Source: Escherichia coli (lineage in GTDB: Bacteria > Pseudomonadota > Gammaproteobacteria > Enterobacterales > Enterobacteriaceae). Taken from it: a DNA stretch of 64,000 nucleotides. Positions 1-52,007 of this stretch are shown here, one piece after another. Position 1 is the stretch's first letter. Every line of letters begins with the position of its first letter. The stretch is from assembly GCF_044324785.1 (NCBI RefSeq), contig NZ_CP172127.1, one strand, 5' to 3'. The translations under genes were made by a program, and so were the position numbers. Under the pieces are notes generated by a model, which worked only from the letters and a program-made list of their open reading frames with translations, was not told the DNA's origin and made no database searches.

Positions 1-300
1 GGGATTTTGATAACTCACGAATGCCGTACCTGTTACGGCATTGTTCATAACGTGGATCCCATCGGTAATGACACCTTCATGACGGAGGCGCTCTATAATG
101 AGTCGGCCAAAATCATCATTACCAACACATCCGAAGAAGATGGCCCGATGGGACAGTTTTGCCACCTGAGCAGCAAAAATTGCTGGCGCACCGCTGGGAA
201 ATGGCCCGATAAACTCCCCAGGCTGAGTGAATTTTTGATGCGGGTTGCGGGACAAAAACTCGGCCAGCAATTCGCCCATAGCGCAGATAGTTATTGTCAC
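1..300 (-). CDS. PfkB-family carbohydrate kinase, N-terminal part only (gene runs off the left edge)
   Basis: Minus-strand frame open from GTG ~300 or ATG 279 down to position 1; translation MGELLAEFL...GPFPSGAPAIF...GCVGNDDFG...AVTGTAFVSY follows the same pattern as the N-terminus of the PfkB kinase at 5835-6797. Absent from the ORF track because no stop lies in the window. Confidence 0.55.
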   Translation of the reverse strand, partial: MTITICAMGELLAEFLSRNPHQKFTQPGEFIGPFPSGAPAIFAAQVAKLSHRAIFFGCVGNDDFGRLIIERLRHEGVITDGIHVMNNAVTGTAFVSYQNP

Positions 301-310
301 AAAACCCCTC

Positions 311-1141
311 TCATTCCTGAAGCCTTTCGCGATTGGACCAGGTAAAGCACTCATTACTGGTATAAAGGATAACGAAATCAGCCGACTGCAATTGTTGCTG
401 ATATTGTTCGTTAATGCTGCGGCTGACGATCACATTTTCTGCTTGATGCAAATGCCCGATAGCAGCCGTTGATGGCGCAGGATCGGCGGCAACGATAACC
501 GTCTTATTCTGGGCATTATCGAAACAGAGCTGCCAGGCAGCGGCAAGTCTGGGAACGTTGATATTTAAAGTACCATCAGCATCCAGATGGCTGATTTCCA
601 GAATGCTATGTGTAATGGTGAAATGCTGAAGTGCCTGTTCGAGAGGTTTTCCGGCCAGTGCGGTGTCGGGGCGCAGCATTTCACTGCCAGCCAGTATTAT
701 TTCGCCATCAATAAACTGATTTGCCAGCAGCGCATGTTCGGGATCGTTGGTGATCAGACGCAGTTTTTTCACTTCGCTGAGCAAAGGAATGATCTTACGG
801 CAGATTGTCCCATGTCCAAGAAATAGCGTGTCACGATCGCGAATTAATCGTGCGCAATGTCGTGCTATTTCCATTTGTTGTGCCAGAGACAACGGCGCGA
901 TCGGTTGTATCGCTTCTGGTTCAGAGGAGAGTGGTGTCGCAATAGCACCGCCAAATGATCGCTTTAAATATCCCTGTTGCTCCAGATAACTGAGATCGCC
1001 GCGGATCGTCACGCCAGAGACACCAAGTTGCGCAGATAAGTCATCAACTTTGATTTCACCCTGGGCGGCAACAATTTCTGCAATTTTTAATCTGCGTTTC
1101 AGTAAGTTAGACGATTTTCTCGGCACGTTAACACTCTTCAT
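311..1141 (-). CDS. DeoR-family transcriptional regulator (sugar operon repressor type)
   Basis: 276-aa ORF with N-terminal helix-turn-helix (LKIAEIVAAQGEIKVDDLSAQLGVSGVTIRGDLSYLEQQG) and a DeoR-like C-terminal domain; divergent from the aldolase/ABC operon; AAAGG 5 nt upstream of the ATG. Confidence 0.7.
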   Translation of the reverse strand: MKSVNVPRKSSNLLKRRLKIAEIVAAQGEIKVDDLSAQLGVSGVTIRGDLSYLEQQGYLKRSFGGAIATPLSSEPEAIQPIAPLSLAQQMEIARHCARLIRDRDTLFLGHGTICRKIIPLLSEVKKLRLITNDPEHALLANQFIDGEIILAGSEMLRPDTALAGKPLEQALQHFTITHSILEISHLDADGTLNINVPRLAAAWQLCFDNAQNKTVIVAADPAPSTAAIGHLHQAENVIVSRSINEQYQQQLQSADFVILYTSNECFTWSNRERLQE

Positions 1142-1310
1142 TGGCCTTTAATGCGTAACACTATAGCCCCTTGTATTTTTCTTTGAAAGTTATCCTTCAA
1201 TAATATCGACAATTCGAAAAGAAAAGCATGGGCTAAAAATCGCAACGAAAATATCTTAATACATTGAAAAATAAATGAATAACTTAATATTTATGCAGAT
1301 GTACTATTGG

Positions 1311-1329
1311 TTTCACTTGCAAAGTGAAA
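1311..1329. promoter_or_regulatory. Candidate operator: palindrome TTTCACTT-gca-AAGTGAAA in the divergent promoter region
   Basis: Perfect 8-bp inverted repeat with 3-bp spacer read directly in the AT-rich regulator/aldolase intergenic region; function inferred. Confidence 0.3.
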
Positions 1330-1413
1330 AACAAATTAAGTTATTTTTTGTAAGTTATTTTGATGATATTCGACATGCATCACGCTTTTTGCCGCTTTTG
1401 CTGTGTTAGTTTG

Positions 1414-1428
1414 CTTTCAAAATGAAAG
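1414..1428. promoter_or_regulatory. Candidate operator: palindrome CTTTCA-aaa-TGAAAG sharing the TTTCA/TGAAA half-sites
   Basis: Second inverted repeat with the same half-site, ~55 bp upstream of the aldolase start; function inferred. Confidence 0.3.
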
Positions 1429-1455
1429 TGAAGATTCTGTTTCTTCATTTTGTAA

Positions 1456-2337
<882 letters not shown>

Positions 2338-2372
2338 TACGTTGTACCCTACAAAAACAATGAGGATTGTTT

Positions 2373-3263
2373 ATGAAAAATATTAAATTACTTGGTTCAG
2401 CTATGTTGGTGAGCCTGGCATTATTCTCGCAAAGTTCATTGGCAAAAGAGTATAAAATCGGTGCGTCATTATTAACACAGCAACATCCTTTCTATATTGA
2501 TCTTGCGAATGCCATGAAAGAAGAGGCAAAAAAAGACAATGTCAATTTAAGTGTCTCTATTGCCAATCAGGATTTAAACAAACAACTTTCTGATGTTGAG
2601 GATTTTATTACTAAAAAAGTGGATGCCATTATTATCTCTCCGGTTGATTCGAAAGGCGTCCAGGCGGCGATAATTAAAGCCGATAAGGCCGGTATTCCCG
2701 TTATCACCGTCGACGTCGCTGCGGAAGGCGTTCCGGTCGTATCGCATGTTGCGACCGATAACTACGCGGGAGGCGTTGAAGCAGGCAAGTTAATGGGCAA
2801 ACTTTTGAATGGCAAAGGTACTGTAGCCATTATTTCTTATCCGGCACTACAATCGGTGGTTGCGCGCGTTGATGGTTTTAAGAAAGGGTTAAGCGAGACA
2901 CCGGATATTAAAATTGTTGCTGAACAACCAGGTATAACGCGGGCTGAAGCGTTAACGACTGCGCAAAACATTATGCAGGCCAACGCCAACCTGAATGGTC
3001 TGTTTGGCTTTGGTGATGATGCGGCGTTGGCAGCGGTTATCGCAGCGAAATCTGCGCATAACGACAACATCAAAATCATTGGTTTTGACGGCATGAAAGA
3101 AGCGCGTGATGCCGTTGACAGTGAAAAAACGTTTGCGGCCGTGATTCGGCAATATCCCGATCAAATGGGGGCTAAAGCCATTGATGCTGCTGTTGATCAC
3201 CTCAATGGTAAACCGGTAGAAAAAATGATCCCGGTACAACCCGGCGTTTATACAGGTAAATAA
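2373..3263 (+). CDS. Periplasmic sugar-binding protein of an ABC transporter (RbsB-like)
   Basis: ORF track starts at TTG 2367; ATG at 2373 with GAGGA 7 nt upstream is the likelier start. Signal peptide MKNIKLLGSAMLVSLALFSQSSLA; type I periplasmic binding protein pattern; visibly AT-rich. Confidence 0.8.
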   Translation: MKNIKLLGSAMLVSLALFSQSSLAKEYKIGASLLTQQHPFYIDLANAMKEEAKKDNVNLSVSIANQDLNKQLSDVEDFITKKVDAIIISPVDSKGVQAAIIKADKAGIPVITVDVAAEGVPVVSHVATDNYAGGVEAGKLMGKLLNGKGTVAIISYPALQSVVARVDGFKKGLSETPDIKIVAEQPGITRAEALTTAQNIMQANANLNGLFGFGDDAALAAVIAAKSAHNDNIKIIGFDGMKEARDAVDSEKTFAAVIRQYPDQMGAKAIDAAVDHLNGKPVEKMIPVQPGVYTGK

Positions 3264-3280
3264 TAAACATCTTCATTTCA

Positions 3281-3307
3281 CAACAAAACGTTATCGACGT
3301 TTTGTTG
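3281..3307 (+). other. Intercistronic stem-loop between the binding-protein and ATPase genes
   Basis: Perfect 10-bp inverted repeat CAACAAAACG-ttatcga-CGTTTTGTTG, 17 bp upstream of the ATPase start. Confidence 0.45.
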
Positions 3308-3323
3308 TGACACCGAGGTCATT

Positions 3324-4823
3324 ATGACGGATGTTATTCTTGATGTTTCGCATATTGCGAAGACATTTGGTCATGTTCAGGCATTAAAAAATATTACACT
3401 CTCTTTACGTAAAGGGCGGGTGCATACTTTATTAGGCGAGAATGGTGCCGGTAAATCGACATTAATGAAAATACTCGCCGGTGTTTATCCGCCAACCCAG
3501 GGAACGATAACACTACGTGGTGAAACCATCACCATTAATAATCCGCAGCATTCTCGCCAGTTAGGGATTGCGATTATTTTTCAGGAACTGAGCCTGAGTA
3601 ATAATATGACCGTGGCGGAAAATATCTATGCCAATAATGAACCGCGACGTTTTGGCATTATTAATGATAAAAAAATGCTCGCAGATTGCCAGAATCTCCT
3701 CGCGGAACTGGGCATCCCTCTGGATCCGCTGGAAATGGTCGGCAATATGTCGATGGCACATAGGCAACTGGTAGAAATTGCCAAAGCCTTAAGCTATGCA
3801 GCGGATGTCGTGATTATGGATGAACCGACATCTTCGCTAAGTGATAATGAAGCAGAGATTCTGTTTAACATTATTGAGAAATTAAAGCAGCGAGGTTGTG
3901 CGGTTATTTATATCTCTCATCGCATGGATGAAATTATGCGGATTTCAGATGATATTTCGGTGATCCGCGACGGTGAGTATATCGCTACGCATGAAAAGAA
4001 AAACAGTGATATCCAGCATTTGATTGCCCAAATGGTTGGTCGGGAAATGAAAAATATTTGGCCAGCACGTCTTGGGGAAAAGCCGGATGAAAATGTTCCT
4101 GCAAAACTGGAAGTAAAAAACCTTTCCCATCCCTCGCTTTTTAAAGAGGTCAGTTTCGCTGTGCGTCCGGGGGAAGTCCTTGGATTTTTTGGCCTGGTGG
4201 GAGCCGGGCGTTCCGATGTGATGAAGGCGCTATTTGGCCTCGTTTCGTATCACGGAACTGTGTTGATTGATGGTAAGGAAGTCAGGATCGCTAATCCCAA
4301 ACAGGCTATTGATCATGGCATTGCTTTTGTGACCGAAAACCGCAAGGAAGAAGGGTTAGTGCTGATGCACGACGTCAATATGAACACGCACCATGTGGCG
4401 TTTCAATATAACGCTTCGCGGATGGGACTCATCAATCACCGACAAGAAGAGGCGAAGACGCTGCAATCTATTGCCAGAATGAACACTAAAGTGAGTTCTG
4501 TACATCAGGCAGTGGGAGCGCTGAGCGGCGGTAATCAACAGAAAATCGTGTTATCGAAGTGGCTGGAGAAAACTCCGCGTATTTTATTGCTCGATGAGCC
4601 AACGCGCGGAGTGGATGTCGGCGCAAAATTTGAAATCTATAACGTGATACGTCAACTGGCTGCGGCAGGGACAGCAATTATTCTGGTGTCCTCTGAACTG
4701 CCAGAAGTCATGGCACTTAGCGATCGTCTGGTGGTAATGCGTAATAAAACGATTGCCGATATTTATTCATGTGAAAATTTAACGCAGACACAGGTAATGA
4801 CCGCTGCAACAGGAGTACGTTAA
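3324..4823 (+). CDS. Sugar ABC transporter ATP-binding protein with two nucleotide-binding domains (RbsA/MglA-like)
   Basis: 499-aa ORF with two Walker A motifs (GENGAGKST and GLVGAGRS) and two LSGGxQQ-type signatures; AT-rich. Confidence 0.85.
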   Translation: MTDVILDVSHIAKTFGHVQALKNITLSLRKGRVHTLLGENGAGKSTLMKILAGVYPPTQGTITLRGETITINNPQHSRQLGIAIIFQELSLSNNMTVAENIYANNEPRRFGIINDKKMLADCQNLLAELGIPLDPLEMVGNMSMAHRQLVEIAKALSYAADVVIMDEPTSSLSDNEAEILFNIIEKLKQRGCAVIYISHRMDEIMRISDDISVIRDGEYIATHEKKNSDIQHLIAQMVGREMKNIWPARLGEKPDENVPAKLEVKNLSHPSLFKEVSFAVRPGEVLGFFGLVGAGRSDVMKALFGLVSYHGTVLIDGKEVRIANPKQAIDHGIAFVTENRKEEGLVLMHDVNMNTHHVAFQYNASRMGLINHRQEEAKTLQSIARMNTKVSSVHQAVGALSGGNQQKIVLSKWLEKTPRILLLDEPTRGVDVGAKFEIYNVIRQLAAAGTAIILVSSELPEVMALSDRLVVMRNKTIADIYSCENLTQTQVMTAATGVR

Positions 4824-5813
4824 ATGACAGAGAAAACTCTTGCCAGTCCGAAACCTTCGGAAATACCCATTGCAAATAATTTTAAAAAAGTCTTCAGGCA
4901 ATATGGCGGTATCCTCAGTGGAATGGTGGTGTTAATCATTCTGTTCAGTTTTATTAATGACAGTTTTTTTACTGCCAATAACATTACTAATATTATTCTT
5001 CAGGTTTCGATAATTGCAATTACCGCCTATGGAATGACTTATGTACTTTTGCTTGGCGATATTGATTTATCGGTCGGTTCAACCATTGCATTGATTGGCA
5101 CATTTGCTGCGCTTGGGGCTTCATGGGGAATTCCATTTATTTTATTGGTCCCATTATCCATTATTGCAGCCCTGGCTCTGGGGATGATAAATGGTGGCTT
5201 GACGGCTATAGCGGGTATCCCTTCGTTTATTGTCACCGTTGCTACTATGGGGATCTTCCGTGGTATCGCTTATATAGTGACCGATGGTATGCCCATCATG
5301 ATTAAAGATGATGCCTTTCTGGCGCTGGGGAATGGAGAATTTCTCTATATACCTATTCCAATCTGGATATTAATTATCTTATTGCTGATTAACCATTTCA
5401 TTCTTACTAAAACAACCTTTGGACGAAAAATTTATATCACTGGTGGTAATAAAGAAGCGGCAGTTTATTCAGGGATAAATGTCACCCGCTTGAAAATAAA
5501 AGTCTTTATGATTACAGCTGTGCTGGCAGGTATCAGCGGGATGATCCTCGCGTCACGCCTTTATTCCGGGCAACCGAATTCCGCGTTGAGCTACGAACTG
5601 GATGCTATTGCCGCGGCTGTACTGGGAGGCACCAGCCTGAACGGCGGCTATGGAACCGTGGTGGGGACGGTGATCGGCGCATTAACCATCGGCGTTATTA
5701 ATAATGGCATGAACTTAATGAATGTTCCCTATTTTTACCAGATGGTGGTTAAAGGATTAGTCATTCTTGTAGCCGTTTATTTTGACGTAAGAAATAAAAG
5801 AAAACGCAGCTAA
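4824..5813 (+). CDS. Sugar ABC transporter permease (RbsC/AraH-like)
   Basis: 329-aa hydrophobic ORF; ATG directly follows the ATPase TAA, implying translational coupling. Confidence 0.85.
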   Translation: MTEKTLASPKPSEIPIANNFKKVFRQYGGILSGMVVLIILFSFINDSFFTANNITNIILQVSIIAITAYGMTYVLLLGDIDLSVGSTIALIGTFAALGASWGIPFILLVPLSIIAALALGMINGGLTAIAGIPSFIVTVATMGIFRGIAYIVTDGMPIMIKDDAFLALGNGEFLYIPIPIWILIILLLINHFILTKTTFGRKIYITGGNKEAAVYSGINVTRLKIKVFMITAVLAGISGMILASRLYSGQPNSALSYELDAIAAAVLGGTSLNGGYGTVVGTVIGALTIGVINNGMNLMNVPYFYQMVVKGLVILVAVYFDVRNKRKRS

Positions 5814-5834
5814 TCATTTCAAGGAATTAATCAT

Positions 5835-6797
5835 ATGAGTAAGGTCTTCACAATTGGAGAAATTCTGGTTGAAATTATGGCGAGTAAAATCGGCCAGCCA
5901 TTTGATCAACCAGGTATCTGGAACGGCCCTTATCCCAGTGGTGCGCCCGCTATTTTTATCGACCAGGTGACACGTCTTGGCGTTCCGTGCGGCATCATTA
6001 GTTGTGTGGGGAATGATGGCTTTGGTGATATTAATATACATCGTCTGGCTGCTGACGGTGTGGATATCAGGGGGATTTCAGTCTTACCTCTGGAAGCTAC
6101 CGGGAGTGCCTTTGTTACTTATCATAACTCTGGCGATCGCGATTTTATTTTTAATATCAAGAATGCCGCTTGCGGTAAATTATCGGCGCAGCATGTTGAT
6201 GAAAATATTCTGAAGGACTGTACCCATTTTCATATTATGGGTTCATCCCTGTTTTCATTCCATATGGTAGACGCAGTAAAGAAAGCGGTAACCATTGTAA
6301 AGGAGAATGGTGGCGTTATTTCTTTCGACCCTAATATTCGGAAAGAGATGCTCGATATTCCAGAAATGCGTGACGCCCTCCACTTTGTTCTTGAGTTAAC
6401 AGATATCTATATGCCCAGCGAGGGAGAAGTGTTGCTCTTGTCGCCACACTCGACACCGGAGCGTGCAATCGCTGGTTTTCTTGAAGAAGGTGTTAAAGAG
6501 GTGATTGTGAAGCGCGGCAATCAAGGTGCCAGTTACTACTCCGCGAATGAGCAGTTTCATGTTGAGAGCTATCCGGTGGAAGAAGTTGACCCGACCGGTG
6601 CGGGAGACTGCTTTGGTGGCGCGTGGATTGCCTGCCGCCAGCTAGGGTTTGACGCCCATCGGGCATTACAATATGCCAACGCCTGCGGTGCACTGGCGGT
6701 AACCCGACGTGGTCCAATGGAGGGAACGTCTCGCCTTGCGGAAATCGAAGCGTTCATCCAGCGCCATGACATGTCCATTCGGGAAGCAGCACAATGA
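5835..6797 (+). CDS. PfkB-family sugar kinase (ribokinase/fructokinase-like)
   Basis: 320-aa ORF; AAGGA upstream; N-terminal glycine-rich motif and C-terminal DPTGAGDCFGGAW anion-hole/catalytic motif typical of the PfkB family. Confidence 0.8.
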   Translation: MSKVFTIGEILVEIMASKIGQPFDQPGIWNGPYPSGAPAIFIDQVTRLGVPCGIISCVGNDGFGDINIHRLAADGVDIRGISVLPLEATGSAFVTYHNSGDRDFIFNIKNAACGKLSAQHVDENILKDCTHFHIMGSSLFSFHMVDAVKKAVTIVKENGGVISFDPNIRKEMLDIPEMRDALHFVLELTDIYMPSEGEVLLLSPHSTPERAIAGFLEEGVKEVIVKRGNQGASYYSANEQFHVESYPVEEVDPTGAGDCFGGAWIACRQLGFDAHRALQYANACGALAVTRRGPMEGTSRLAEIEAFIQRHDMSIREAAQ

Positions 6798-7840
6798 AAA
6801 ACGAAATTTGGTCGTGGATTGGCGATCTCTCGCAGGTTGCCGGAATTAAACACTATGAGTTACGTAGTGGCAGAGCAAAGGGGACAGAAGCGTTTGATGT
6901 CCGTACCGGTGCGGGACTGGCATTTACGGTGGTAAAAGATCGCGCGCTGGATATTGCATGGGCCAGCTACAAGGACACTGCGCTCTCTTTTATCACCCCC
7001 AACGGCATTGTCGCCCCCGCTTTTTTTGAGTCTCAGGGCAACGGGTTTTTACGTAGCTTCTACGCGGGGTTACTGACTACCTGCGGACTTAGCTACATTG
7101 GCACGCCCTGTGAGGATGACGGAGAAACGCTGGGGTTACACGGGCGTTTGGCTGCGACTCCAGCAGAAGAGGTGGGGTATCGCACAGAACGGACCGACGA
7201 CGGCATTGAATTTGTCATCAATGGCAAAGTACGGGAAACACGATTGTTCGGTGAAAATCTGACGCTGGAAAGGACCATTCGCTGCCGCTATGGCGAAAAT
7301 GTGCTGCGCATTGAAGACAAGGTGACTAATCATGGTTTCACCCGCCAGCCGCTGCAAATTCTTTATCACTTTAATTACGGCTGGCCTTTATTATCGCCAC
7401 AGGCAGAAATTTTGCTGTCGGCTAAAAGCGTAACGCCACGAACTCCGCATGCGGCGGAAGGGATAGCCAGTCATCTGGAGATTTGTACCCCACAGCCCGG
7501 TTTTGACGAGCAGGTTTACTATCTCACGTTGAATAGTGACAGTCAGGGGATGAGTAAAGTTGCGCTGGTGAACGCTGAACTGGGGTGGGGAATTTACGAG
7601 AAATTCGACACCATGCAGCTACCCAACTTTATCCAGTGGAAAAATTTAGGCGCGGGTGAATATGTTATGGGGCTGGAGGTCAGCAATAGTTTTCCTGACG
7701 GTCGTGATAAAGAACGAGCGCAGGGGCGTCTGCCCTTTATAGAGCCAGGGGAAACAAAGACATACTGCTTTGAGCTGGGAATTGTTGATGGCGATGCTGA
7801 AATTAGCGCGTTGAAAGCGGAAATTGCAAGCTACCGTTAG
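6794..7840 (+). CDS. Aldose 1-epimerase (mutarotase)-like protein, uncharacterised
   Basis: 348-aa ORF overlapping the kinase stop by ATGA; contains LYHFNYGWP and GLEVSNSFPD...PGE motifs reminiscent of galactose mutarotase-fold proteins; assignment from motif recall only. Confidence 0.5.
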   Translation: MKNEIWSWIGDLSQVAGIKHYELRSGRAKGTEAFDVRTGAGLAFTVVKDRALDIAWASYKDTALSFITPNGIVAPAFFESQGNGFLRSFYAGLLTTCGLSYIGTPCEDDGETLGLHGRLAATPAEEVGYRTERTDDGIEFVINGKVRETRLFGENLTLERTIRCRYGENVLRIEDKVTNHGFTRQPLQILYHFNYGWPLLSPQAEILLSAKSVTPRTPHAAEGIASHLEICTPQPGFDEQVYYLTLNSDSQGMSKVALVNAELGWGIYEKFDTMQLPNFIQWKNLGAGEYVMGLEVSNSFPDGRDKERAQGRLPFIEPGETKTYCFELGIVDGDAEISALKAEIASYR

Positions 7841-7850
7841 CTAACGGCAA

Positions 7851-7886
7851 TAAAAACGCCGGGCAGCGTTAACAGGCCCGGCGTTG
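7851..7886 (-). terminator. Rho-independent terminator downstream of accC, shared with the convergent sugar operon
   Basis: 10-bp stem AACGCCGGGC/GCCCGGCGTT with 11-nt loop, followed on the minus strand by TTTTTATT. Confidence 0.5.
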
Positions 7887-7931
7887 ATTACGTTCTTTGC
7901 TAAGCGCGATGAAAACACCGCGCGTCACAAA

Positions 7932-9762: not shown

Positions 9763-10525
9763 GAGTGGGTTCCGTACTCTTTGTTTAGTGTGATTGTGAC
9801 AGGCGTTTCACCGCCGTCTGTAAAGCGTATGCCCCGACAGCTGTATGCATAGCGATAAATTCCAGCAGGCCGGGACGCCGGTCTATTTTGCCCCAGAGTG
9901 TCAATGTTAGACTTGACGGACATTGTGCAGCGATCTGCTGCTATCCTCCGGCAAAAAACAAAATATACCTTCGTTGCGCCAATGTCACCTTTTCCGCAGC
10001 GCAAAAACTGCGTCAGGGAGGACGAGGTCGCACATTATAACGATTTCGTAGCAATTGGCAGCTAAATACTGGTCTTATCAGGGAAGATAATCAACAGCTA
10101 ACATGTAAATAACCTTCAACACCGTGTAATTTGCAACAAGCCGCACAATTCACGAAATTAGCGCCATCATCGACGGAACTTCTTATAACGTAAGGCTAAA
10201 AGCTGTAAAGCCAGCCCTGCGAAGATGAGGGGCTGCAATGAGATAATCTTCACAGACCACAAATAATGTAGGGATGCCAGGATCGCGACAAGATCGACGA
10301 CATTACGCAGCGGTTGCTGGGGATTGCCCAATTTTCACTGCATCGTCTGGATAAATGTGAATGCTAAAGCACGCAAAATCAACCGCCTGACAATGCTCAG
10401 CATGAAATAGGTTTAACTGGTTAATTTGTAATCAAACAAAATCAGATTATTCCCCCCATTTTGCAGAAGGTAAACTGTTTTGTCAGGCGGCAGTACGGCT
10501 ATGTGATGCACTGCCGCGTGACAAT

Positions 10526-10554
10526 AAAAAAGCCGATTTGGTAGCAAAATCGGC
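10526..10554 (-). terminator. Rho-independent terminator after the 276-aa gene
   Basis: Stem GCCGAT(TTG)/(CAAA)ATCGGC followed on the minus strand by a T-run (plus-strand AAAAAA at 10526-10531); a second hairpin GCGGCAGT...ACTGCCGC lies at ~10487-10517. Confidence 0.5.
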
Positions 10555-10619
10555 TTCGGTGAGTTTGCAGCATTCATCACATACTCCGACAAGCTTTTTC
10601 AAGCATGACGGAGGTTGCG

Positions 10620-11450
10620 TTAATGCAAGGTTTCTACCCAGGGATAAAAGTGACCGTTACGGCGGATGAATATCTGTGTTGTCAGAGGATGGTCATCCTC
10701 ACGGAAGCATTGTTCTGTTAACTGTCGTAATGCGCTGAGATTTGCTGGCTGATCATTGTGGGTGAAAAACAGTTTTCCTCTGGAGGGAACTGTCACTAAC
10801 AGGTCGCCGCATTCAGGATCGGGTGATTGCACCCAAAGATCGTCAATGAGCATCAGACTGGGCTCATAAGTACCCCCTGCGGAGATAACGGCAACTTTTC
10901 CATCGTTTGCGCCGGTATCAACGATTTCAGCCGTAACTTCCGGCAATATTTGCTTCAAATTACTGATGGCTTGTTCGCGGTCAATGGTCACTTCGCAGCG
11001 CATCAGATAGCGCATGGTTTCGCTACCGTCTTCAGCAAACAGGATAATTAACTCATCGTTAAAGTCTTCCCAGGCAAAATCAAGCGAGGCGTTGAGGACC
11101 TCTGGATCAGACTCATACTGGCTAAGCTGTTGGCGAACGGTATCCAGCCAGGCTTTTTCTTTAATCACCGGGACAATACAGCGCCCGGTCGGCAGCATTT
11201 CTGCAAGCTGTTTCAGCATATCTGCAGCCACTTCTTCCAGCGGGTCTGGTGCGGCTTGATAACGTTTGTAAGCATCATCAAGGGTGATTTCCACCGTTTG
11301 GTGACCCGTATCAATGCGCATCAATTTATGGTCAGTCGAAATCATGACTTTCCAGTTTGGATGATGTTGTACAACTTCCTGACCAAGGTGTTCGACGAAA
11401 GCTGTCAGGCTAACCGCTTTTCCCGTTAACCGATTGAATAATGATTTCAA
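10620..11450 (-). CDS. Hypothetical protein, 276 aa, unknown function
   Basis: Long uninterrupted ORF; TTG start with GAGAGGG ~8 nt upstream, 37 bp downstream of acuI in the same orientation; own terminator; acidic, no predicted membrane segment; I cannot assign a family by recall. Confidence 0.6.
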   Translation of the reverse strand: MKSLFNRLTGKAVSLTAFVEHLGQEVVQHHPNWKVMISTDHKLMRIDTGHQTVEITLDDAYKRYQAAPDPLEEVAADMLKQLAEMLPTGRCIVPVIKEKAWLDTVRQQLSQYESDPEVLNASLDFAWEDFNDELIILFAEDGSETMRYLMRCEVTIDREQAISNLKQILPEVTAEIVDTGANDGKVAVISAGGTYEPSLMLIDDLWVQSPDPECGDLLVTVPSRGKLFFTHNDQPANLSALRQLTEQCFREDDHPLTTQIFIRRNGHFYPWVETLH

Positions 11451-19686: not shown

Positions 19687-22600
19687 GTGAGGCGATTGCC
19701 GGGGATTTTACTGCTTACTGGAGCTGCGTTCGTTGTGATCGCTGCCCTGCTGGTTAGCGGCCTGCGTATTGCTTTACCGCATCTTGACGCCTGGCGTCCG
19801 GAAATCCTCAACAAAATAGAATCCGCGACTGGCATGCCAGTAGAAGCCAGTCAGCTCTCAGCCAGCTGGCAGAATTTTGGTCCGACGCTTGAAGCGCACG
19901 ACATCCGTGCAGAACTAAAAGATGGCGGCGAATTTTCGGTTAAACGCGTTACTCTGGCGCTGGATGTCTGGCAGAGCCTGTTACATATGCGCTGGCAGTT
20001 TCGCGACCTCACTTTCTGGCAGCTGCGCTTTCGCACCAACACTCCTATCACCAGCGGCGGTGGTAATGATAGCCTGGAAGCCAGTCACATCAGCGATCTG
20101 TTTCTTCGTCAATTTGACCATTTCGATCTCCGCGACAGTGAAGTCAGTTTCCTGACGCCATCCGGTCAGCGCGCCGAGCTGGCGATCCCACAGCTCACCT
20201 GGCTGAACGATCCACGTCGACACCGTGCGGAAGGCCTGGTAAGCCTCTCCAGCCTTACCGGACAGCACGGCGTGATGCAGGTGCGTATGGATTTGCGCGA
20301 TGATGAGGGGTTGTTAAGCAATGGTCGCGTCTGGCTCCAGGCGGATGACATCGACCTGAAGCCGTGGCTCGGTAAATGGATGCAGGACAATATTGCGCTG
20401 GAAACGGCACAGTTCTCCCTTGAAGGCTGGATGACGATCGACAAAGGCGATGTAACCGGCGGTGACGTCTGGCTGAAACAGGGCGGTGCCAGCTGGTTGG
20501 GCGAGAAGCAAACGCATACGCTGTCGGTGGATAATCTGACCGCGCATATTACGCGTGAAAATCCGGGCTGGCAGTTCTCTATTCCCGACACACGGATCAC
20601 GATGGACGGCAAACCCTGGCCGAGCGGAGCATTGACGCTGGCCTGGATACCGGAACAGGACGTTGGCGGCAAAGACAATAAACGCAGTGACGAACTCCGG
20701 ATTCGCGCCAGTAATCTGGAGCTGGCAGGCCTGGAGGGCATACGCCCGCTGGCCGCGAAACTTTCACCTGCACTGGGTGATGTTTGGCGCTCCACACAAC
20801 CGAGCGGCAAGATTAACACTCTGGCGCTGGATATCCCGCTTCAGGCGGCAGACAAGACCCGTTTTCAGGCATCGTGGAGCGATCTGGCCTGGAAGCAATG
20901 GAAATTATTACCGGGTGCGGAACACTTCTCCGGGACGCTTTCCGGCAGCGTAGAAAATGGTTTGCTTACCGCGTCGATGAAGCAGGCAAAGATGCCTTAC
21001 GAAACGGTATTCCGTGCGCCACTGGAAATCGCCGACGGCCAGGCAACGATAAGCTGGCTGAACAATGACAAAGGTTTCCAGCTGGATGGGCGTAATATTG
21101 ACGTTAAAGCCAAAGCCGTCCATGCGCGCGGCGGTTTTCGTTACCTGCAACCAGCTAACGATGAACCCTGGCTGGGGATTCTGGCTGGCATCAGTACCGA
21201 CGATGGTTCACAAGCCTGGCGCTATTTCCCGGAAAACTTGATGGGTAAAGACCTGGTTGATTACTTAAGCGGCGCGATTCAGGGCGGTGAAGCGGATAAT
21301 GCGACGCTGGTTTATGGTGGCAATCCGCAACTCTTCCCCTATAAACACAATGAAGGTCAGTTTGAAGTGCTGGTGCCGCTGCGCAACGCGAAGTTTGCCT
21401 TCCAGCCGGACTGGCCTGCATTAACTAACCTTGATATTGAACTGGACTTTATCAACGACGGTTTATGGATGAAAACCGATGGCGTTAATCTGGGCGGCGT
21501 GCGCGCGAGTAATCTCACCGCAGTGATCCCTGACTACTCAAAAGAAAAACTGCTGATTGACGCTGACATTAAAGGCCCGGGTAAAGCCGTTGGCCCTTAC
21601 TTTGATGAGACACCGCTGAAAGATTCTCTGGGTGCGACCCTGCAAGAACTCCAGCTCGACGGCGATGTGAATGCTCGCTTACATCTTGATATCCCGCTGA
21701 ACGGCGAACTGGTAACCGCGAAAGGTGAAGTGACGCTGCGTAATAACAGTCTGTTTATCAAACCACTCGACAGCACCCTGAAAAATTTGAGCGGTAAATT
21801 CAGCTTTATCAATGGCGATCTGCAAAGTGAACCACTGACAGCAAGCTGGTTTAATCAGCCGTTGAACGTGGATTTTTCCACCAAAGAAGGGGCAAAAGCC
21901 TACCAGGTTGCGGTGAATCTCAACGGTAACTGGCAACCAGCGAAAACCGGCGTTTTGCCTGAAGCGGTGAACGAAGCATTAAGTGGCAGCGTGGCGTGGG
22001 ATGGTAAAGTGGGCATTGAGTTGCCTTATCATGCTGGCGCGACCTATAACGTAGAGCTGAACGGCGATCTGAAGAATGTGAGCAGTCACTTACCTTCACC
22101 GTTAGCCAAACCTGCTGGTGAACCAATAGCGGTAAACGTTAAGGTTGATGGCAATCTCAACAGCTTTGAATTAACCGGACAGGCAGGTGCGGATAACCAT
22201 TTCAATAGCCGCTGGTTGCTCGGTCAAAAGCTGACGCTCGATCGTGCTATTTGGGCGGCAGACAGTAAAACGCTCCCGCCGTTGCCGGAACAAAGTGGCG
22301 TTGAACTCAATATGCCGCCGATGAATGGTGCCGAGTGGCTGGCCCTGTTCCAGAAAGGCGCTGCGGAGAGGGTCGGTGGTGCAGCGAGTTTCCCACAACA
22401 CATAACGTTACGTACGCCTGTGTTGTCGCTGGGAAATCAGCAATGGAATAACCTGAGTATTGTTTCGCAACCGATGGCAAATGGCACCCAGGTTGAGGCG
22501 CAAGGGCGTGAAATCAACGCCACGCTGGCGATGCGTAATAACGCGCCGTGGCTGGCGAATATCAAATATCTTTATTACAACCCGAGCGTGGCGAAAACTC

Positions 22601-23487
22601 GTGGTGATTCAACGCCGTCATCACCTTTCCCGACAACGGAGCGCATTAACTTCCGTGGCTGGCCGGACGCCCAAATACGATGCGCAGAGTGCTGGTTCTG
22701 GGGGCAAAAATTCGGTCGTATTGACAGTGATATCACCATTTCTGGCAATACATTAACGCTGACTAATGGACTGATTGATACTGGTTTTTCGCGGCTCACT
22801 GCCGATGGTGAATGGGTTAACAATCCGGGAAATGAACGCACCTCGCTGAAAGGAAAACTGCGTGGGCAGAAAATTGATGCCGCCGCAGAATTTTTTGGTG
22901 TCACGACGCCCATACGCCAGTCGTCATTTAATGTGGATTACGATTTACACTGGCGCAAAGCACCCTGGCAACCGGATGAGGCGACGTTGAATGGCATCAT
23001 TCATACTCAACTGGGCAAAGGCGAAATTACCGAAATCAATACCGGACATGCCGGGCAATTGCTGCGCTTATTGAGCGTTGATGCCCTGATGCGTAAGCTG
23101 CGTTTTGATTTCAGAGACACCTTTGGTGAAGGGTTCTATTTTGACTCCATTCGCAGCACCGCGTGGATTAAAGACGGCGTTATGCACACCGACGACACGC
23201 TGGTGGATGGCCTGGAAGCGGACATTGCCATGAAAGGGTCGGTAAATCTGGTGCGTCGCGACCTGAATATGGAAGCGGTTGTCGCACCAGAGATTTCTGC
23301 GACGGTGGGTGTGGCTGCGGCTTTTGCGGTTAACCCTATTGTTGGAGCGGCAGTATTTGCAGCCAGTAAAGTGCTGGGGCCGCTGTGGAGCAAAGTCTCC
23401 ATTTTGCGCTATCACATTTCGGGTCCGCTGGACGATCCGCAAATCAACGAAGTGTTGCGCCAACCGCGTAAAGAAAAAGCGCAATGA
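19687..23487 (+). CDS. yhdP: AsmA-family large envelope protein (phospholipid transport)
   Basis: 1266-aa ORF, GTG start, N-terminal membrane anchor. Confidence 0.9.
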   Translation: MRRLPGILLLTGAAFVVIAALLVSGLRIALPHLDAWRPEILNKIESATGMPVEASQLSASWQNFGPTLEAHDIRAELKDGGEFSVKRVTLALDVWQSLLHMRWQFRDLTFWQLRFRTNTPITSGGGNDSLEASHISDLFLRQFDHFDLRDSEVSFLTPSGQRAELAIPQLTWLNDPRRHRAEGLVSLSSLTGQHGVMQVRMDLRDDEGLLSNGRVWLQADDIDLKPWLGKWMQDNIALETAQFSLEGWMTIDKGDVTGGDVWLKQGGASWLGEKQTHTLSVDNLTAHITRENPGWQFSIPDTRITMDGKPWPSGALTLAWIPEQDVGGKDNKRSDELRIRASNLELAGLEGIRPLAAKLSPALGDVWRSTQPSGKINTLALDIPLQAADKTRFQASWSDLAWKQWKLLPGAEHFSGTLSGSVENGLLTASMKQAKMPYETVFRAPLEIADGQATISWLNNDKGFQLDGRNIDVKAKAVHARGGFRYLQPANDEPWLGILAGISTDDGSQAWRYFPENLMGKDLVDYLSGAIQGGEADNATLVYGGNPQLFPYKHNEGQFEVLVPLRNAKFAFQPDWPALTNLDIELDFINDGLWMKTDGVNLGGVRASNLTAVIPDYSKEKLLIDADIKGPGKAVGPYFDETPLKDSLGATLQELQLDGDVNARLHLDIPLNGELVTAKGEVTLRNNSLFIKPLDSTLKNLSGKFSFINGDLQSEPLTASWFNQPLNVDFSTKEGAKAYQVAVNLNGNWQPAKTGVLPEAVNEALSGSVAWDGKVGIELPYHAGATYNVELNGDLKNVSSHLPSPLAKPAGEPIAVNVKVDGNLNSFELTGQAGADNHFNSRWLLGQKLTLDRAIWAADSKTLPPLPEQSGVELNMPPMNGAEWLALFQKGAAERVGGAASFPQHITLRTPVLSLGNQQWNNLSIVSQPMANGTQVEAQGREINATLAMRNNAPWLANIKYLYYNPSVAKTRGDSTPSSPFPTTERINFRGWPDAQIRCAECWFWGQKFGRIDSDITISGNTLTLTNGLIDTGFSRLTADGEWVNNPGNERTSLKGKLRGQKIDAAAEFFGVTTPIRQSSFNVDYDLHWRKAPWQPDEATLNGIIHTQLGKGEITEINTGHAGQLLRLLSVDALMRKLRFDFRDTFGEGFYFDSIRSTAWIKDGVMHTDDTLVDGLEADIAMKGSVNLVRRDLNMEAVVAPEISATVGVAAAFAVNPIVGAAVFAASKVLGPLWSKVSILRYHISGPLDDPQINEVLRQPRKEKAQ

Positions 23488-23561
23488 TTTGACGAGGGCG
23501 CGTAATTGCCCCAATCTCATAGGATAATCGTTGCCAAAGGCCAACGAGCCGGAACATAACC

Positions 23562-23597
23562 GTAGGCCGGATAGGGCGTTCACGCCGCATCCGGCAG
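23562..23597. repeat. REP (repetitive extragenic palindromic) element
   Basis: GTAGGCCGGATAGGGCGTTCACGCCGCATCCGGCAG between yhdP and tldD matches the enterobacterial REP consensus. Confidence 0.65.
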
Positions 23598-23627
23598 CCG
23601 TATAAAATCCTCTACTGCAGTAACTAA

Positions 23628-25088
<1,461 letters not shown>

Positions 25089-46652: not shown

Positions 46653-46727
46653 ATTTATTAGCTCAGGTGTGACCTGACCCATCTTTGGCACAGAGCCAAA
46701 CCTGAACTGACGGACCGCTCTGTGCCA

Positions 46728-47069
46728 TTACCTGACGTTGTATTCTTTTATGTTAACACCCTTGATGCTGTATATACCTGTCCGCTTAATTCGCTTACCC
46801 TTTTTATTCGTAATAGTTGCTGTAAGTGTACTGCAGCGAATGGAATGACGTTCATCAATCACCAGCCGAATTGCTTCTGAAGCATCTTCCACCTCTAGAA
46901 GGTCGTGAGTCTTATTTAAGCCGAATGGAACAAGGTGGAAGGCAGTTTTTCCAGATGATTTTCTGGTTATTTTTACTGGATACAACACATCACCACTTTT
47001 ATGGATTAATTCAAGCTGTTCAATGTAAATCATAGCAACTTTCCTTCGTTTATCTGCATGAATATACAA
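46728..47069 (-). CDS. Orphan hypothetical protein in AT-rich DNA (113 aa from TTG; more likely 101 aa from the ATG at 47033)
   Basis: ORF in ~40% GC sequence; internal ATG at 47033 has AGGAAA 6 nt upstream; lysine-rich C-terminus; no family recognised; coding status unproven. Confidence 0.4.
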   Translation of the reverse strand: MYIHADKRRKVAMIYIEQLELIHKSGDVLYPVKITRKSSGKTAFHLVPFGLNKTHDLLEVEDASEAIRLVIDERHSIRCSTLTATITNKKGKRIKRTGIYSIKGVNIKEYNVR

Positions 47070-47120
47070 ACCGAAAATAGGAGATGCAATACAAAAGCTG
47101 TGGAAATATCAAACAGCCTC

Positions 47121-47378
47121 TCAATTTGGCAGGCAGCGTCTGCCAAATCTTTGCCGATGGAAATTCTGCAGACGGTGTCTGCAGAACTTCAACGTGTTGA
47201 TAAAAAGGTAAAAAAGCCTAATTTGGCGTAAGTTTTTTGCAGAGAACCCACGCTTATATCTTAGACTTAAATCCTTTGATAGTCGCTTGATTAGCTGCGC
47301 ACCATACGCAGCCCTAGCCTCGCCACCTTGTTCAAATTCGACAATCCGTCGGCCAATTTCCCAGTACGTCGCGGTCAT
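47121..47378 (-). pseudogene. yhcG: Frameshifted, truncated remnant of yhcG (DUF1016 PD-(D/E)XK nuclease-like)
   Basis: First ~57 codons (MTATYWEIGRRIVEFEQGGEARAAYGAQLIKRLSKDLSLRYKRGFSAKNLRQ) read like the YhcG N-terminus; the frame then degenerates and stops at 85 aa while a plausible continuation (LQTPSAEFPSAKIWQTLPAKL) is in another frame; the ~290 C-terminal codons of the 375-aa K-12 protein are absent. Confidence 0.6.
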
Positions 47379-47487
47379 TAACGCGTTAACACTACGTACC
47401 GTTTCCGTCCGGGCACTATCGAACTGGTGAATAATGTCTCCATGTACCCGCTTGTAGCCTAAATATCGCTACTTTATTTTTAACCAA

Positions 47488-48153
47488 TTAATAATATTTC
47501 AGTGTGATTTCCGCTGTGCCACTGAATTCCATCTTGTCCGTAACATTCAACTCCGACATCGCATTAATCGCAGAGCTGATTTTAAGTGGCACAGTTAGTG
47601 TGGTCAGATTTTGCGGTGAAGATGTACCAAATGCGTAAACGGTTGTGTTATCTGGGCTGACGATCTGCCAATTCCCAGTAGACTTTATCCATGTTGGATT
47701 GCTGCTATCAGTTGCTGAAAGTACAGAAACCCCTGTTCCGTTATCGACGGTAATCCCCATATTATCAATCATAATGGCCCATGCTCCGACCGGCTTATTT
47801 TTGAATAACCCCAGCCCCAGCAGGTCGCTTTGTGTTAATGCGCTACCGAGCGGAATTTTTGCCGCCATTGCAGTACCAGAATTGAGATCTTTAATAAGAA
47901 TCCCTGGGGCAGCGCTGCCTGGACAGCTAATTGATAGTTGGGTATTTTGATCTGGTAAGCGTGTGGCATCCTGGGTATTCATATTTGCAACAATATAGGT
48001 TCCAAGATTAATGACGCTATTCGTCAGGTTAATTGAACAGGAAGGCGGTTCCACCAACGCGCTAACATGGATGGTGATGTCTGCGGCACTGACATTGGTG
48101 GAACAGAAAAGCGTTATCAGGCCAATCAGCGATATTTTATTCATGACTATCAC
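47488..48153 (-). CDS. yhcF: Fimbrial-like protein (DUF1120)
   Basis: 221-aa ORF, GTG start overlapping the yhcE stop, signal peptide, C-terminus FSGTAEITLKYY. Confidence 0.75.
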   Translation of the reverse strand: MIVMNKISLIGLITLFCSTNVSAADITIHVSALVEPPSCSINLTNSVINLGTYIVANMNTQDATRLPDQNTQLSISCPGSAAPGILIKDLNSGTAMAAKIPLGSALTQSDLLGLGLFKNKPVGAWAIMIDNMGITVDNGTGVSVLSATDSSNPTWIKSTGNWQIVSPDNTTVYAFGTSSPQNLTTLTVPLKISSAINAMSELNVTDKMEFSGTAEITLKYY

Positions 48154-48722
48154 TCCGGTCGGCTATTCAGAGAAATGTTCAGGTCGTTGGTGAGCGTAAG
48201 TAAGTCTTGAGGGTTAATATCCTTGCCTGTGATCAATGGCAGTATCGCCAGTTGTACACTGGCCTGTGTTAGCGCCTGTTCGCGATCATGCTGCATAAAA
48301 GATATACCTTCCGAAGGTAATAAAACAATATTAGATGTACCGCCGTCTTGAAGTTGGTTGCTCACGGAAACACGAGACACAGAGGCACTCTGACCGCCTA
48401 TTGTCGGATTAGAGGCTTTGACTCGTATCACGCTCTGCTCGCCAAACTTAAATAGTGATTTTCCTTTATATGTCAATTTATTACCGTCAATCATGACGTG
48501 TACATAATGTGGTGAATCGCATTGAATATTCAGCGTAATATAGCGTTCTGGCAACGCAATACCATCCACCACCGTGGTATTGATGGTGTGTAATGTGCGT
48601 GAAGAACGATCAACCTTTCCCCAGGCAATATCCTGTTGGTTGGCTGTCACCTTACAGTTCTCGGCCAACGTAAATTGACTAAAAAAACAGGTTATTAGCA
48701 GAAGAGCCAAAGATGTTTTCAT
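48150..48722 (-). CDS. yhcE: Fimbrial-like protein, intact
   Basis: 190-aa uninterrupted ORF with signal peptide MKTSLALLLITCFFSQFTLA; no IS sequence present. Confidence 0.75.
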   Translation of the reverse strand: MKTSLALLLITCFFSQFTLAENCKVTANQQDIAWGKVDRSSRTLHTINTTVVDGIALPERYITLNIQCDSPHYVHVMIDGNKLTYKGKSLFKFGEQSVIRVKASNPTIGGQSASVSRVSVSNQLQDGGTSNIVLLPSEGISFMQHDREQALTQASVQLAILPLITGKDINPQDLLTLTNDLNISLNSRPE

Positions 48723-48734
48723 CTTGTTATTTCC

Positions 48735-51176
48735 TTATAAACAATGAGCTTGAACCGTTTCGTATACCACACTATCAGGCGCATCTTTGGGTAACGTATA
48801 TTGTAGATGGCATATTTTGCCATCAGGAAGAATAACCTTAAGAGTGTCCGTATTATTTTCAATGTTATTAATAAAGAAGGTGCCTTCTTCAACAACGGAG
48901 GTCAGATAGTTTCCCTGTGCGGTATGAACAGAACTATTCAGAGGTAAAAGGGCATTATTGAATCGCACATCCTGGAACATCACCCGACGTGCTGATAGCA
49001 CGGTGAAGGAAATACTTCCGACTGAATAACGCCCTTGTTTAACTTCTTGAGTAGCGTTTGCAATATCGGTTTTTTTAGCCAATGATTTGGGGTCAATTTC
49101 AACAATTGCCGTCTGGTACGGAGGTAAAACGGGCACAACAGCTTGCCCCCACCAGTCAGTCCATGCGGCACCCTGTGGCGTTTGAATTTGGACGCCAGCC
49201 TGTTTTTGGCTCAATTGGGCAATGGCCCAGGTATCAGCGATCCTGTCCGGGGAAAAGGTTATTCCATCCTTGTGCAGAGCGATCCCGCCATCAAGCGTGG
49301 CAGAAGAATAATGGCTGTCCGAGCCGCTTTGTCCCGCAGATAGTCCGAGGCGAGTATAATGTAGGTTAGTATTAAGGCCACCGCTGGCATTATTGCCACT
49401 ATCTTGGCTACGTTCATAGCTGACATAATAACTACTGTCTTTCAGGAAGGCGCCAGAAAGCGTTGAGCCAATGCGAGTATCATTATTTTCATGTCGCACC
49501 CAACTACTGGAATAATGGTTACCTAAAGGCACGTAAACAGTAAGGTTAAGTGAGTCTTCACTGTCATTTCCTTTTTCATGCCGGTAATAAAAATTGGTGG
49601 AGAAATATTTAAACTGCCTACTCCAGTTTATTGTGGTGTTAGTTGAATCACCGTCACGATAATAGCTTTTATTATTGGTATAACTTAGGCTAATTCCACC
49701 TAATAAATCGTGATACCAGGTCAGCGATCCAGTAAGCTCATTTTTATTGTAGGCATAGAATTTATTGTCATCTCCATAATCCCATGGTTGGTCGCTGATA
49801 TCGTCATTTTGCGTGGAATCAAGCAAATCGCGATAACCTCGCTCACTCCAGGTGTCGGTAACGGAAAAGCTTAAATTATCCAGCAGGTCTGCACCTAACG
49901 TGATCGCTGCCTGATTCCCTCGCTTATTATGATTATCATCGACCGCACTTCGGAGCTGAATAGAAGTTGACCAGTGAGTGAAAGGCTGAAAATCAACCCC
50001 GCCAGCAAAAGCATAATAGTTATTTGCGACGATGCCGCCTGTCGATAAAGTATAAGTATTAAAAACCGGCTGACTCCAGGCACCGCTTAACACCATCGGT
50101 TCGTCATCTTCTGCACCAACCTCGCGAACCCGGCCTACGGCAAAATTGTAGTTTGGTGTTCCTGTCACCGTTCGACGGAAAGAATCGCTAAAAACAGTAA
50201 ACTGGTCGCTACTCCCATCGCTTTCGATAACTGTCACATCCAGGTTACTGCTTTGATTCAGGACTGGAACGTTGGTTAAAGTAAATGGTCCCATTGGAGC
50301 CAAAGTAGAATAAATAAGCTGTTTATTTTGTCGGATTTCAATGCGTGCTTGCGATGATTTGACATTACCAGAAACCATCACATCATTACGTCTGTTTGGG
50401 GTTAGCGAAATATCAGGTTGTATCTGTACACCGTAAAGTGAGGCGCCGGAAAGTAGGGGGTTGGCAAGGTTGATCCCGCCTGCCTGCATATTTATTTTGC
50501 TTGCGGTGAAAGTATGTTCGGCATAAGTATAGAGATTGTCGAGATTGTGATCGCCATTAGATAAGGCAACCGAGGTACTATTACGTATTATCCAGTCGCC
50601 CATATTGATGCCGCTTTGTAGCGCAGCACTGGTATAATTATCATTATCGCCGTTATATTTATTAATATTATGCAATAATGAATAGTTTATAGTCGCCCCC
50701 GTCCCTCCAGTGGTGTAACCGCTAACCTCATCTGGGGATTGTAAGGCAATCGCCTCTGTCGGTAATAACACAAAGACTTTGTATTGCGCCGAATCGAAAT
50801 GTACCACCGCTGATGGATAGAGCATCTGCAATGTTTGGCAACGGTCGTCAGTTTCCGTTAAATTTTGTGGGATGATGACACCAGCTCTTTGCATCCAGTT
50901 AGTGTCAGCGCAAAGTTCGCCTTGTGGGTCAATAGTGATGGTAACATTGACATTTCGGTGACCATTAATGTCCATATTGACCTGTTGCGTGCCGGGAGGA
51001 AGACGTGCTTCTTTTGAAAAATAAGCCGCAACATTTTTATCTATACCAAATGAGCGTAACGCATCGCTATTGAAGTTAAGAGCGGTCTCCATCTCTTCCT
51101 GCGACGAAGCTGCCATAGCTATAATAGGAATAAAATGCAGCACTAGAAAGATCTTGTTGAGGGGAAAATATTTCAA
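48735..51176 (-). CDS. yhcD: Fimbrial outer-membrane usher
   Basis: 813-aa ORF with usher-type beta-barrel pattern and conserved C-terminal Cys pair; start may be at an internal Met. Confidence 0.9.
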   Translation of the reverse strand: MKYFPLNKIFLVLHFIPIIAMAASSQEEMETALNFNSDALRSFGIDKNVAAYFSKEARLPPGTQQVNMDINGHRNVNVTITIDPQGELCADTNWMQRAGVIIPQNLTETDDRCQTLQMLYPSAVVHFDSAQYKVFVLLPTEAIALQSPDEVSGYTTGGTGATINYSLLHNINKYNGDNDNYTSAALQSGINMGDWIIRNSTSVALSNGDHNLDNLYTYAEHTFTASKINMQAGGINLANPLLSGASLYGVQIQPDISLTPNRRNDVMVSGNVKSSQARIEIRQNKQLIYSTLAPMGPFTLTNVPVLNQSSNLDVTVIESDGSSDQFTVFSDSFRRTVTGTPNYNFAVGRVREVGAEDDEPMVLSGAWSQPVFNTYTLSTGGIVANNYYAFAGGVDFQPFTHWSTSIQLRSAVDDNHNKRGNQAAITLGADLLDNLSFSVTDTWSERGYRDLLDSTQNDDISDQPWDYGDDNKFYAYNKNELTGSLTWYHDLLGGISLSYTNNKSYYRDGDSTNTTINWSRQFKYFSTNFYYRHEKGNDSEDSLNLTVYVPLGNHYSSSWVRHENNDTRIGSTLSGAFLKDSSYYVSYERSQDSGNNASGGLNTNLHYTRLGLSAGQSGSDSHYSSATLDGGIALHKDGITFSPDRIADTWAIAQLSQKQAGVQIQTPQGAAWTDWWGQAVVPVLPPYQTAIVEIDPKSLAKKTDIANATQEVKQGRYSVGSISFTVLSARRVMFQDVRFNNALLPLNSSVHTAQGNYLTSVVEEGTFFINNIENNTDTLKVILPDGKICHLQYTLPKDAPDSVVYETVQAHCL

Positions 51177-51187
51177 GATAGCATTCC

Positions 51188-51889: not shown

Positions 51890-52007
51890 AAATTATAAAC
51901 GCATAATATAAAAAGAACGATACGCCCACAGAATGTGTAGGCGTTGTTTTATTAAATTATTCATGTATGTTATTTTTCAGTTAAAACTAAAAAATAACAG
52001 CAATAAA

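Follow-up and report, generated by a model that had tools for sequence, protein, structure and literature searches.

The gap between yhdP and tldD in Escherichia coli contains an imperfect palindrome, which the initial annotation of this DNA described as a canonical REP, an ordinary feature and the only clear REP copy in the window (the whole stretch of 64,000 nt analysed here). The locus raises the questions of whether the palindrome is a REP and of which type, whether it stands alone, how it relates to the REP array of strain K-12 at the same place, and what such an element could do between these two genes. Taken together, the evidence identifies it, with high confidence, as a solo y-type REP (palindromic unit) that is fixed in the yhdP–tldD intergenic region of E. 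coli.

Type, placement and structure of the palindrome

The element occupies positions 23562–23597 of the plus strand and reads GTAGGCCGGATAGGGCGTTCACGCCGCATCCGGCAG, which resolves into GTAG, the palindrome GCCGGAT-AG-GGCG-TTCA-CGCC-GC-ATCCGGC and a final AG. The flanking ORFs end at 23487 and start at 23643, and carry the names yhdP and tldD in the annotation of near-identical E. coli genomes, confirming the placement between these genes. The REP lies 75 nt past the yhdP stop codon and 45 nt ahead of the tldD start codon. The features of the region are:

19687–23487, plus strand: yhdP, the upstream gene; a 1266-codon ORF whose stop codon ends at 23487, named from near-identical E. coli annotation
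23528–23547, plus strand: small hairpin TCGTTGCCAAAGGCCAACGA, left of the REP
23550–23561, plus strand: left flank CGGAACATAACC; in array alleles it is repeated per unit within the tail-to-tail linker AAAC(C)GGAACATAACC
23562–23597, plus strand: complete y-type REP, in the 'REP' orientation of Ton-Hoang et al., with GTAG first (covariance score 61.3 bits, E 5e-13)
23562–23565, plus strand: GTAG tetranucleotide, 5′ of the hairpin foot, invariant in an alignment of 18 REPs
23566–23572, plus strand: 5′ arm of the outer stem, GCCGGAT, pairing with 23589–23595, with compensatory changes in related copies
23573–23574, plus strand: 5′ side (AG) of a 2 × 2 internal mismatch, opposite GC at 23587–23588 and unpaired in all folds
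23575–23586, plus strand: inner stem GGCG/CGCC around the loop TTCA (23579–23582), from folds and alignment
23580–23583, plus strand: TCAC in the loop, the 4 bp target duplicated by IS1397 in the orthologue of strain BH100
23589–23595, plus strand: 3′ arm of the outer stem, ATCCGGC, from the repeat finder and folds
23598–23601, plus strand: right flank CCGT; in array alleles it is repeated as the y/z2 head-to-head linker
23601/23602: insertion point of the polymorphic gap, with comparison loci L001 (388–817), L008, L009 and L028
23643–25088, plus strand: tldD, the downstream gene; a 481-codon ORF, named from near-identical E. coli annotation

The y-type REP consensus, GCCGGATGCGGCGTGAACGCCTTATCCGGCCTAC, agrees with the minus strand of 23562–23597 at 33 of 34 positions. 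The single mismatch is G23574, where the bubble of the consensus is AA (A to G), a variant that is common to the terminal y copies of the K-12 array. The type is y rather than z1 or z2, neither of which matches at up to 3 mismatches, nor at up to 7–9. When the window was shuffled 100 times with dinucleotides preserved, no sequence within 3 mismatches of the y consensus arose, and the analytical expectation of a 33/34 match by chance is about 1e-13 in 128 kb. The REP consensus scan of the window thus confirmed a canonical REP palindrome at the very coordinates first reported, matching the y type. All of the characters of y-type REPs that can be read from sequence are present: a length of 36 nt, within the 30–40 nt of these imperfect palindromes, a 5′ GTAG, a mismatch within the stem, an extragenic site bounded by the stop of yhdP (23487) and the start of tldD (23643), and the consensus match. 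In its length, its GTAG, its palindrome of 7 + 4 bp with a 2 × 2 mismatch, its 33/34 agreement and its extragenic position downstream of a gene, it resembles the solo y-type REPs (PUs) of E. coli, and in K-12, 84 of 584 REPs are such single occurrences, forming the solo class (PMC3333891). The strand that reads GTAG first is the sense strand of both yhdP and tldD.

A repeat finder placed the inverted-repeat arms at 23566–23579 and 23582–23595. Folded alone, the 36-mer forms a 7 bp outer stem, a 2 × 2 internal mismatch, a 4 bp inner stem and a 4 nt loop, with energies of −21.4 (plus strand) and −21.1 kcal/mol (minus strand) as RNA, or −12.2 (plus) and −11.2 kcal/mol (minus) with DNA parameters. 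For both strands and both parameter sets the z-score was about −5, and no shuffled sequence was equally stable. Among the 18 aligned REPs, 96.9% of stem cells hold standard pairs, compared with 17–51% in controls where the partner position was slid, and 4 of the 11 stem pairs show compensatory changes on both sides, such as G-C to U-A between y and z2 copies, or C-G to U-A inside arrays. This pairing supports a conserved hairpin, the aligned REPs being related copies from which the structure itself was drawn, and the pairing statistics do not amount to separate proof that selection acts on RNA and not on DNA.

A second conserved element of the gap lies at 23489–23518, right after the yhdP stop codon, and is strongly conserved in about 110 loci of Enterobacteriaceae and Erwiniaceae. 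TTTGACG is followed in it, after about 9 variable nt, by AATTGCCnCAnnCTC; some genera retain only the second half, which overlaps the stop codon. The block may be a promoter or regulatory site of tldD. A sigma-32-like promoter is one conceivable reading of the block, for which a literature search gave no support. If a transcript does start there, the REP would lie inside the 5′ leader of tldD. An Rfam search matched no family to the yhdP–tldD gap, and its only hit in the window was ArcZ.

REPs elsewhere in the window and in the K-12 counterpart

The description of the element as the only clear REP copy in the window holds, because no further REP in the 64 kb was revealed by three types of scan. 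Searches by Hamming distance for the y, z1 and two z2 consensuses (up to 9, 7 and 9 mismatches, respectively) found no second REP, and blastn-short with the K-12 array as query returned, beyond this site, only chance words of 11–12 nt. Eighteen REPs of the y, z1 and z2 types, taken from Escherichia, Salmonella and Citrobacter, served to build a covariance model, which was run over the whole window with filters off. The model scored 61.3 bits at 23562–23597 (E 5e-13), and elsewhere in the window gave nothing better than E = 4; a weak match of 13 bits at 23566–23595 on the minus strand is the REP palindrome read backwards. As a positive control, the model recovered REPs on which it had not been trained in loci of Escherichia, Citrobacter, Salmonella and Pseudocitrobacter. 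Half-site scans of the window added matches at chance level only; one of them (60130–60143) lies inside a coding ORF, has no palindromic partner, and was rejected as a REP.

In the homologous 65 kb of K-12 MG1655, REPs are likewise confined to the yhdP–tldD gap, so that REPs are scarce along this stretch in both strains. A scan, rather than annotation, was used to locate the K-12 REPs, the RefSeq feature table listing no repeat_region at yhdP–tldD. K-12 has 584 REPs in 4.6 Mb (PMC3333891), so several loci would be expected in 64 kb; a single REP locus is low but not remarkable. Queried with the K-12 array, E. coli genomes have a median of 19 matching places each.

The comparison with K-12 also revealed other differences across the window. 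A sugar-utilisation island that K-12 lacks at this position takes up 1–7931 and borders on the end of accC. Its genes specify a DeoR regulator, a class II aldolase, a periplasmic binding protein, an ABC ATPase, a permease, a PfkB kinase and a DUF4432/aldose-epimerase-like protein. Of 5,426 E. coli genomes, 1,419 have the island, and its sequence is 100% identical to that of strain N3 and 98.7% to that of IAI39. About 850 bp at 10459–11308 are unlike the yrdF/yrdE pseudogene region of K-12, and a 276-codon ORF at 10620–11450 (minus strand) had no match in Pfam. When the region 46653–53199 was set against the K-12 gltF-yhcA-yhcG segment, only one piece of 275 bp aligned, at 92% identity. The operon there has an intact chaperone (51188–51889) and usher (48735–51176) and lacks the IS5 by which yhcE is interrupted in K-12. 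The region seems to represent the yhc fimbrial cluster in a divergent allelic form. The ArcZ sRNA (63132–63239, minus strand; Rfam RF00081, 120.8 bits) adjoins arcB, as expected for E. coli.

Solo and array alleles of the locus

The distribution of the REP was surveyed in 5,426 complete E. coli genomes with a query of 361 bp around it. The locus is present in 5,425 of them, identity at the best place is 95% or higher except in two records, and in 5,419 genomes one single place covers at least 80% of the query. A REP at yhdP–tldD is thus found in practically all complete E. coli genomes. The match is often 635 bp long rather than 361. The solo form is carried by about two-thirds of the genomes, and at least 1,785 (33%) have most of a longer allele. 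An evenly spaced sample of 59 chromosomal rows contained 38 solo, 19 seven-REP and 2 five-REP alleles; the gap measures 155 bp with one REP (about 64% of sampled genomes), 429 bp with seven (about one-third) and 338 bp with five (rare). Strains with the solo allele include O157:H7, CFT073 and UTI89, and those with arrays include K-12, DH1 and HS.

The array alleles differ by an extra 183 or 274 bp inserted between positions 23601 and 23602 of the window. In the K-12-type allele the insert is 274 bp and the REPs are arranged as y-z2-y-z2-y-z2-y, a textbook BIME-2; the five-REP alleles of two strains are K-12-type arrays shorter by one unit. The K-12 tldD–yhdP BIME-2 (PMC6379681; MG1655 3392029–3392457) is at the orthologous locus, with identical unique flanks, and the window REP corresponds to its terminal y units. 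The two differ in content: the window has one y and no z2 in 155 bp, the K-12 allele four y and three z2 REPs in 429 bp. As z2 REPs are absent from the whole window, the locus does not qualify here as a BIME or BIME-2 by definition, while the K-12-type allele does.

Inner y copies of the array read AAGGCGTTTACG and terminal ones AGGGCGTTCACG. The linkers between copies re-use the flanks of the solo REP, the sequence of 23550–23561 being contained in AAAC(C)GGAACATAACC, and CCGT being that of 23598–23601. Judged from these sequences, the array is an in-place amplification of the local unit, the linkers re-using the flanks as such a process predicts. This fits the published observation that the BIME copies standing in tandem at a given locus resemble one another and differ in number between strains (PMC3333891). 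The solo REP is thus the one-copy allele of a locus that is polymorphic in copy number. This was not seen in the initial annotation, and it leaves the view of the element as an ordinary, well-known y-type REP with known biology unchanged.

In one strain the REP is itself interrupted. E. coli BH100 carries the IS3-family element IS1397, with a frameshifted transposase, within the yhdP–tldD gap (locus L003, 1070–2493). The junctions read ...GGGCGTTCAC, then IS1397, then TCACGCCGC..., which places the insertion in the loop of a solo REP, with a 4 bp duplication of TCAC. According to the titles of reports cited in PMC3333891, IS1397 inserts specifically into the palindromic units of BIMEs. The BH100 orthologue is thus the target of a REP-specific IS, which is an independent sign of a functional REP target.

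The state of the gap outside E. coli was examined by a scan that used the start of tldD as pattern, with one genome per species, and returned 120 Enterobacterales loci. Most of the Enterobacteriaceae and Erwiniaceae among them have a gap of 72–105 bp without a REP. Single y REPs at the same position, in gaps of 148–155 bp, are found in E. albertii, E. whittamii and Escherichia sp. E1V33, each with about 91% identity to the window, and in Escherichia sp. MOD1-EC7003 (95.5%). Since the three species at about 91% and the lineage at 95.5% are all solo, parsimony suggests that the solo state is probably ancestral in the genus and that arrays came later.

REPs have also reached this gap in other genera. 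Salmonella arizonae, Citrobacter werkmanii and C. braakii have two tail-to-tail REPs there, and C. youngae and C. koseri have REP pairs at a different insertion point, after CTTCTACCGCAGT. With two insertion points, the gap has been colonised more than once and is a recurrent landing place for REPs. Citrobacter sp. FP75 has an empty gap of 75 bp, and other Citrobacter species likewise have an empty 75 bp site. The Salmonella and Citrobacter loci with REP pairs or empty gaps are L010, L044, L046, L016, L035, L092, L106 and L078. The small hairpin at 23528–23547 can be aligned with the left-hand one of the two REPs that make up the element of S. arizonae and C. werkmanii, and may, speculatively, be a decayed second REP.

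A different history would make the solo REP the product of a secondary collapse, in which a BIME-2 array was reduced by unequal recombination or slippage between its first and last y copies. We consider this rather unlikely. Copy number does change in small steps, as the five-REP alleles with K-12-type units attest, and the derived variant AGGGCGTTCACG is common to the window REP and both terminal y copies of K-12. The foot of the window REP, GGCCGG, is that of the outgroups, and the terminal K-12 copies have GGTCGG and GGCTGG; a single crossover between these cannot give GGCCGG, which argues against the simple collapse of a K-12-type array. The left flank of the window, GAGCCGGAAC, is also the E. 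albertii version and unlike that of array alleles, although the solo allele of BH100 does have the left-flank A variant (GAGCCAGAAC) typical of arrays. A diverged five-REP array occurs in a lineage with 94% identity to the window (L028), and arrays may accordingly be old, a point in favour of collapse that stands against the uniformly solo state of the three species at about 91% and the lineage at 95.5%. Collapse may nevertheless have occurred in some lineages.

Possible roles in RNA, gyrase cleavage and TnpA_REP recognition

The REP would be transcribed within the 3′ region of yhdP or the yhdP–tldD spacer. It shares its sense strand with both genes and the gap has no terminator-like site, so read-through from yhdP should include the hairpin. 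By analogy with studied REPs, a hairpin of −21 kcal/mol without a U-tract, 75 nt past the yhdP stop, would not terminate transcription, and would instead block PNPase and RNase II, shielding the upstream yhdP message. Stem-loops, REPs among them, are known to form the stable 3′ ends of Rho-terminated transcripts and to guard them from PNPase and RNase II (PMC6061677). As far as the REP mRNA stabilisers are described in the work cited there (malE-malF, Newbury et al. 1987; Rho-terminated 3′ ends), they are like the window element in having a sense-strand hairpin without a U-tract, in a spacer after a gene, and of comparable stability. The classic stabilisers often have two or more REPs, whereas the copy in the window is single and known here from its sequence.

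At the DNA level, two loci have been named at which gyrase cleaves at multiple sites, and the BIME-2 between tldD and yhdP of K-12 is one of them; y units are cut far more frequently than z2 units, and the signal at BIME-2 is independent of transcription and rises when transcription is blocked (PMC6379681). Given the preference of gyrase for y units in the K-12 array, the solo copy is likely to be a gyrase site too, and a lone y unit would be a weaker one, the published data being for the seven-REP array and not for a single y. It can be imagined that the solo/array polymorphism is a natural dosage switch of a strong, transcription-independent gyrase site, such that local supercoiling, domain structure or the expression of yhdP and tldD would not be the same in solo strains as in K-12-type strains, and that the A-to-G change in the bubble, or a −35-like hexamer borne by the REP, would contribute to the control of tldD. 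We put this forward as a conjecture of low probability.

The GTAG and the mismatched hairpin, when on single-stranded DNA, constitute a putative binding site for TnpA_REP (RAYT), the domesticated transposase that is the likely agent of REP spread and array growth. Both the GTAG and the non-complementary bases in the stem are needed for TnpA_REP binding in vitro, and the GTAG for cleavage as well; the main characterised cleavage sites are held by iREPs, with C|T sites in linkers or at a distance also being cut (PMC3333891). The solo REP has no inverted partner (iREP), and may therefore be bound by TnpA_REP without being readily mobilised. A single-strand hairpin with a guide tetranucleotide, recognised by a Y1 enzyme of the HUH class, is also the arrangement of the sub-terminal hairpins of IS200/IS605 elements, whose Y1 transposases have a described relation to TnpA_REP (PMC3333891). 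Unlike these elements, the REP is non-autonomous, has no adjoining transposase gene in the window, and is one hairpin rather than a pair of left and right ends.

Three other explanations of the palindrome were weighed. The REP could mainly serve tldD, with its loop providing the −35 hexamer TTCACG (23579–23584) of a sigma-70 promoter whose −10 would be TAAAAT (23603–23608). This TTCACG-18-TAAAAT site (23579–23608), with its −10 placed 35 nt upstream of the tldD start codon, is the sole promoter-like site in 23300–23800 and agrees with the consensus at 9 of 12 positions, where shuffled sequence is expected to give 0.3 sites. We nevertheless regard such a role as very unlikely: the match is one to a consensus only and the excess over shuffles amounts to about one site, tldD also lies immediately downstream in species whose gap is empty and without a REP, and most alleles (K-12, E. 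albertii and arrays) have GTAAAAAAT rather than GTATAAAAT, which is a poorer −10.

That the hairpin is an intrinsic (Rho-independent) terminator of yhdP is highly improbable. It is stable, GC-rich, on the sense strand and 75 nt past the yhdP stop, but the stem is followed by AGCCGUAUAAAAUCC and not by a U-run, a terminator scan of the gap finds no site, and REPs as a class are not intrinsic terminators (PMC6061677). With a tail past the stem of AGCCGTATAAAATCC, the U-run of intrinsic terminators is missing and this candidate was rejected. A chance palindrome unrelated to the REP family, in favour of which nothing was counted, can be dismissed given the absence of matches in 100 shuffles, the expectation of about 1e-13 for a 33/34 match in 128 kb, the presence of the element at an identical site across the genus, and the targeting of its orthologue by a REP-specific IS.

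A solo y-type REP is an element already known in kind, and both the copy-number variation of BIME-2 and the K-12 array have been published (PMC6379681, PMC3333891). REPs are among the best-catalogued repeats of E. coli, and the element therefore matters little in itself; the locus-specific survey of alleles and the outgroup series are small additions. They type the window as solo at a locus occupied in K-12 by a BIME-2 array that gyrase cleaves strongly, and they reveal a natural series at one locus, made up of an empty gap, one REP, five REPs, seven REPs and a REP disrupted by IS1397. Such a series could be used to test the effect of REP copy number on gyrase binding and on mRNA stability.
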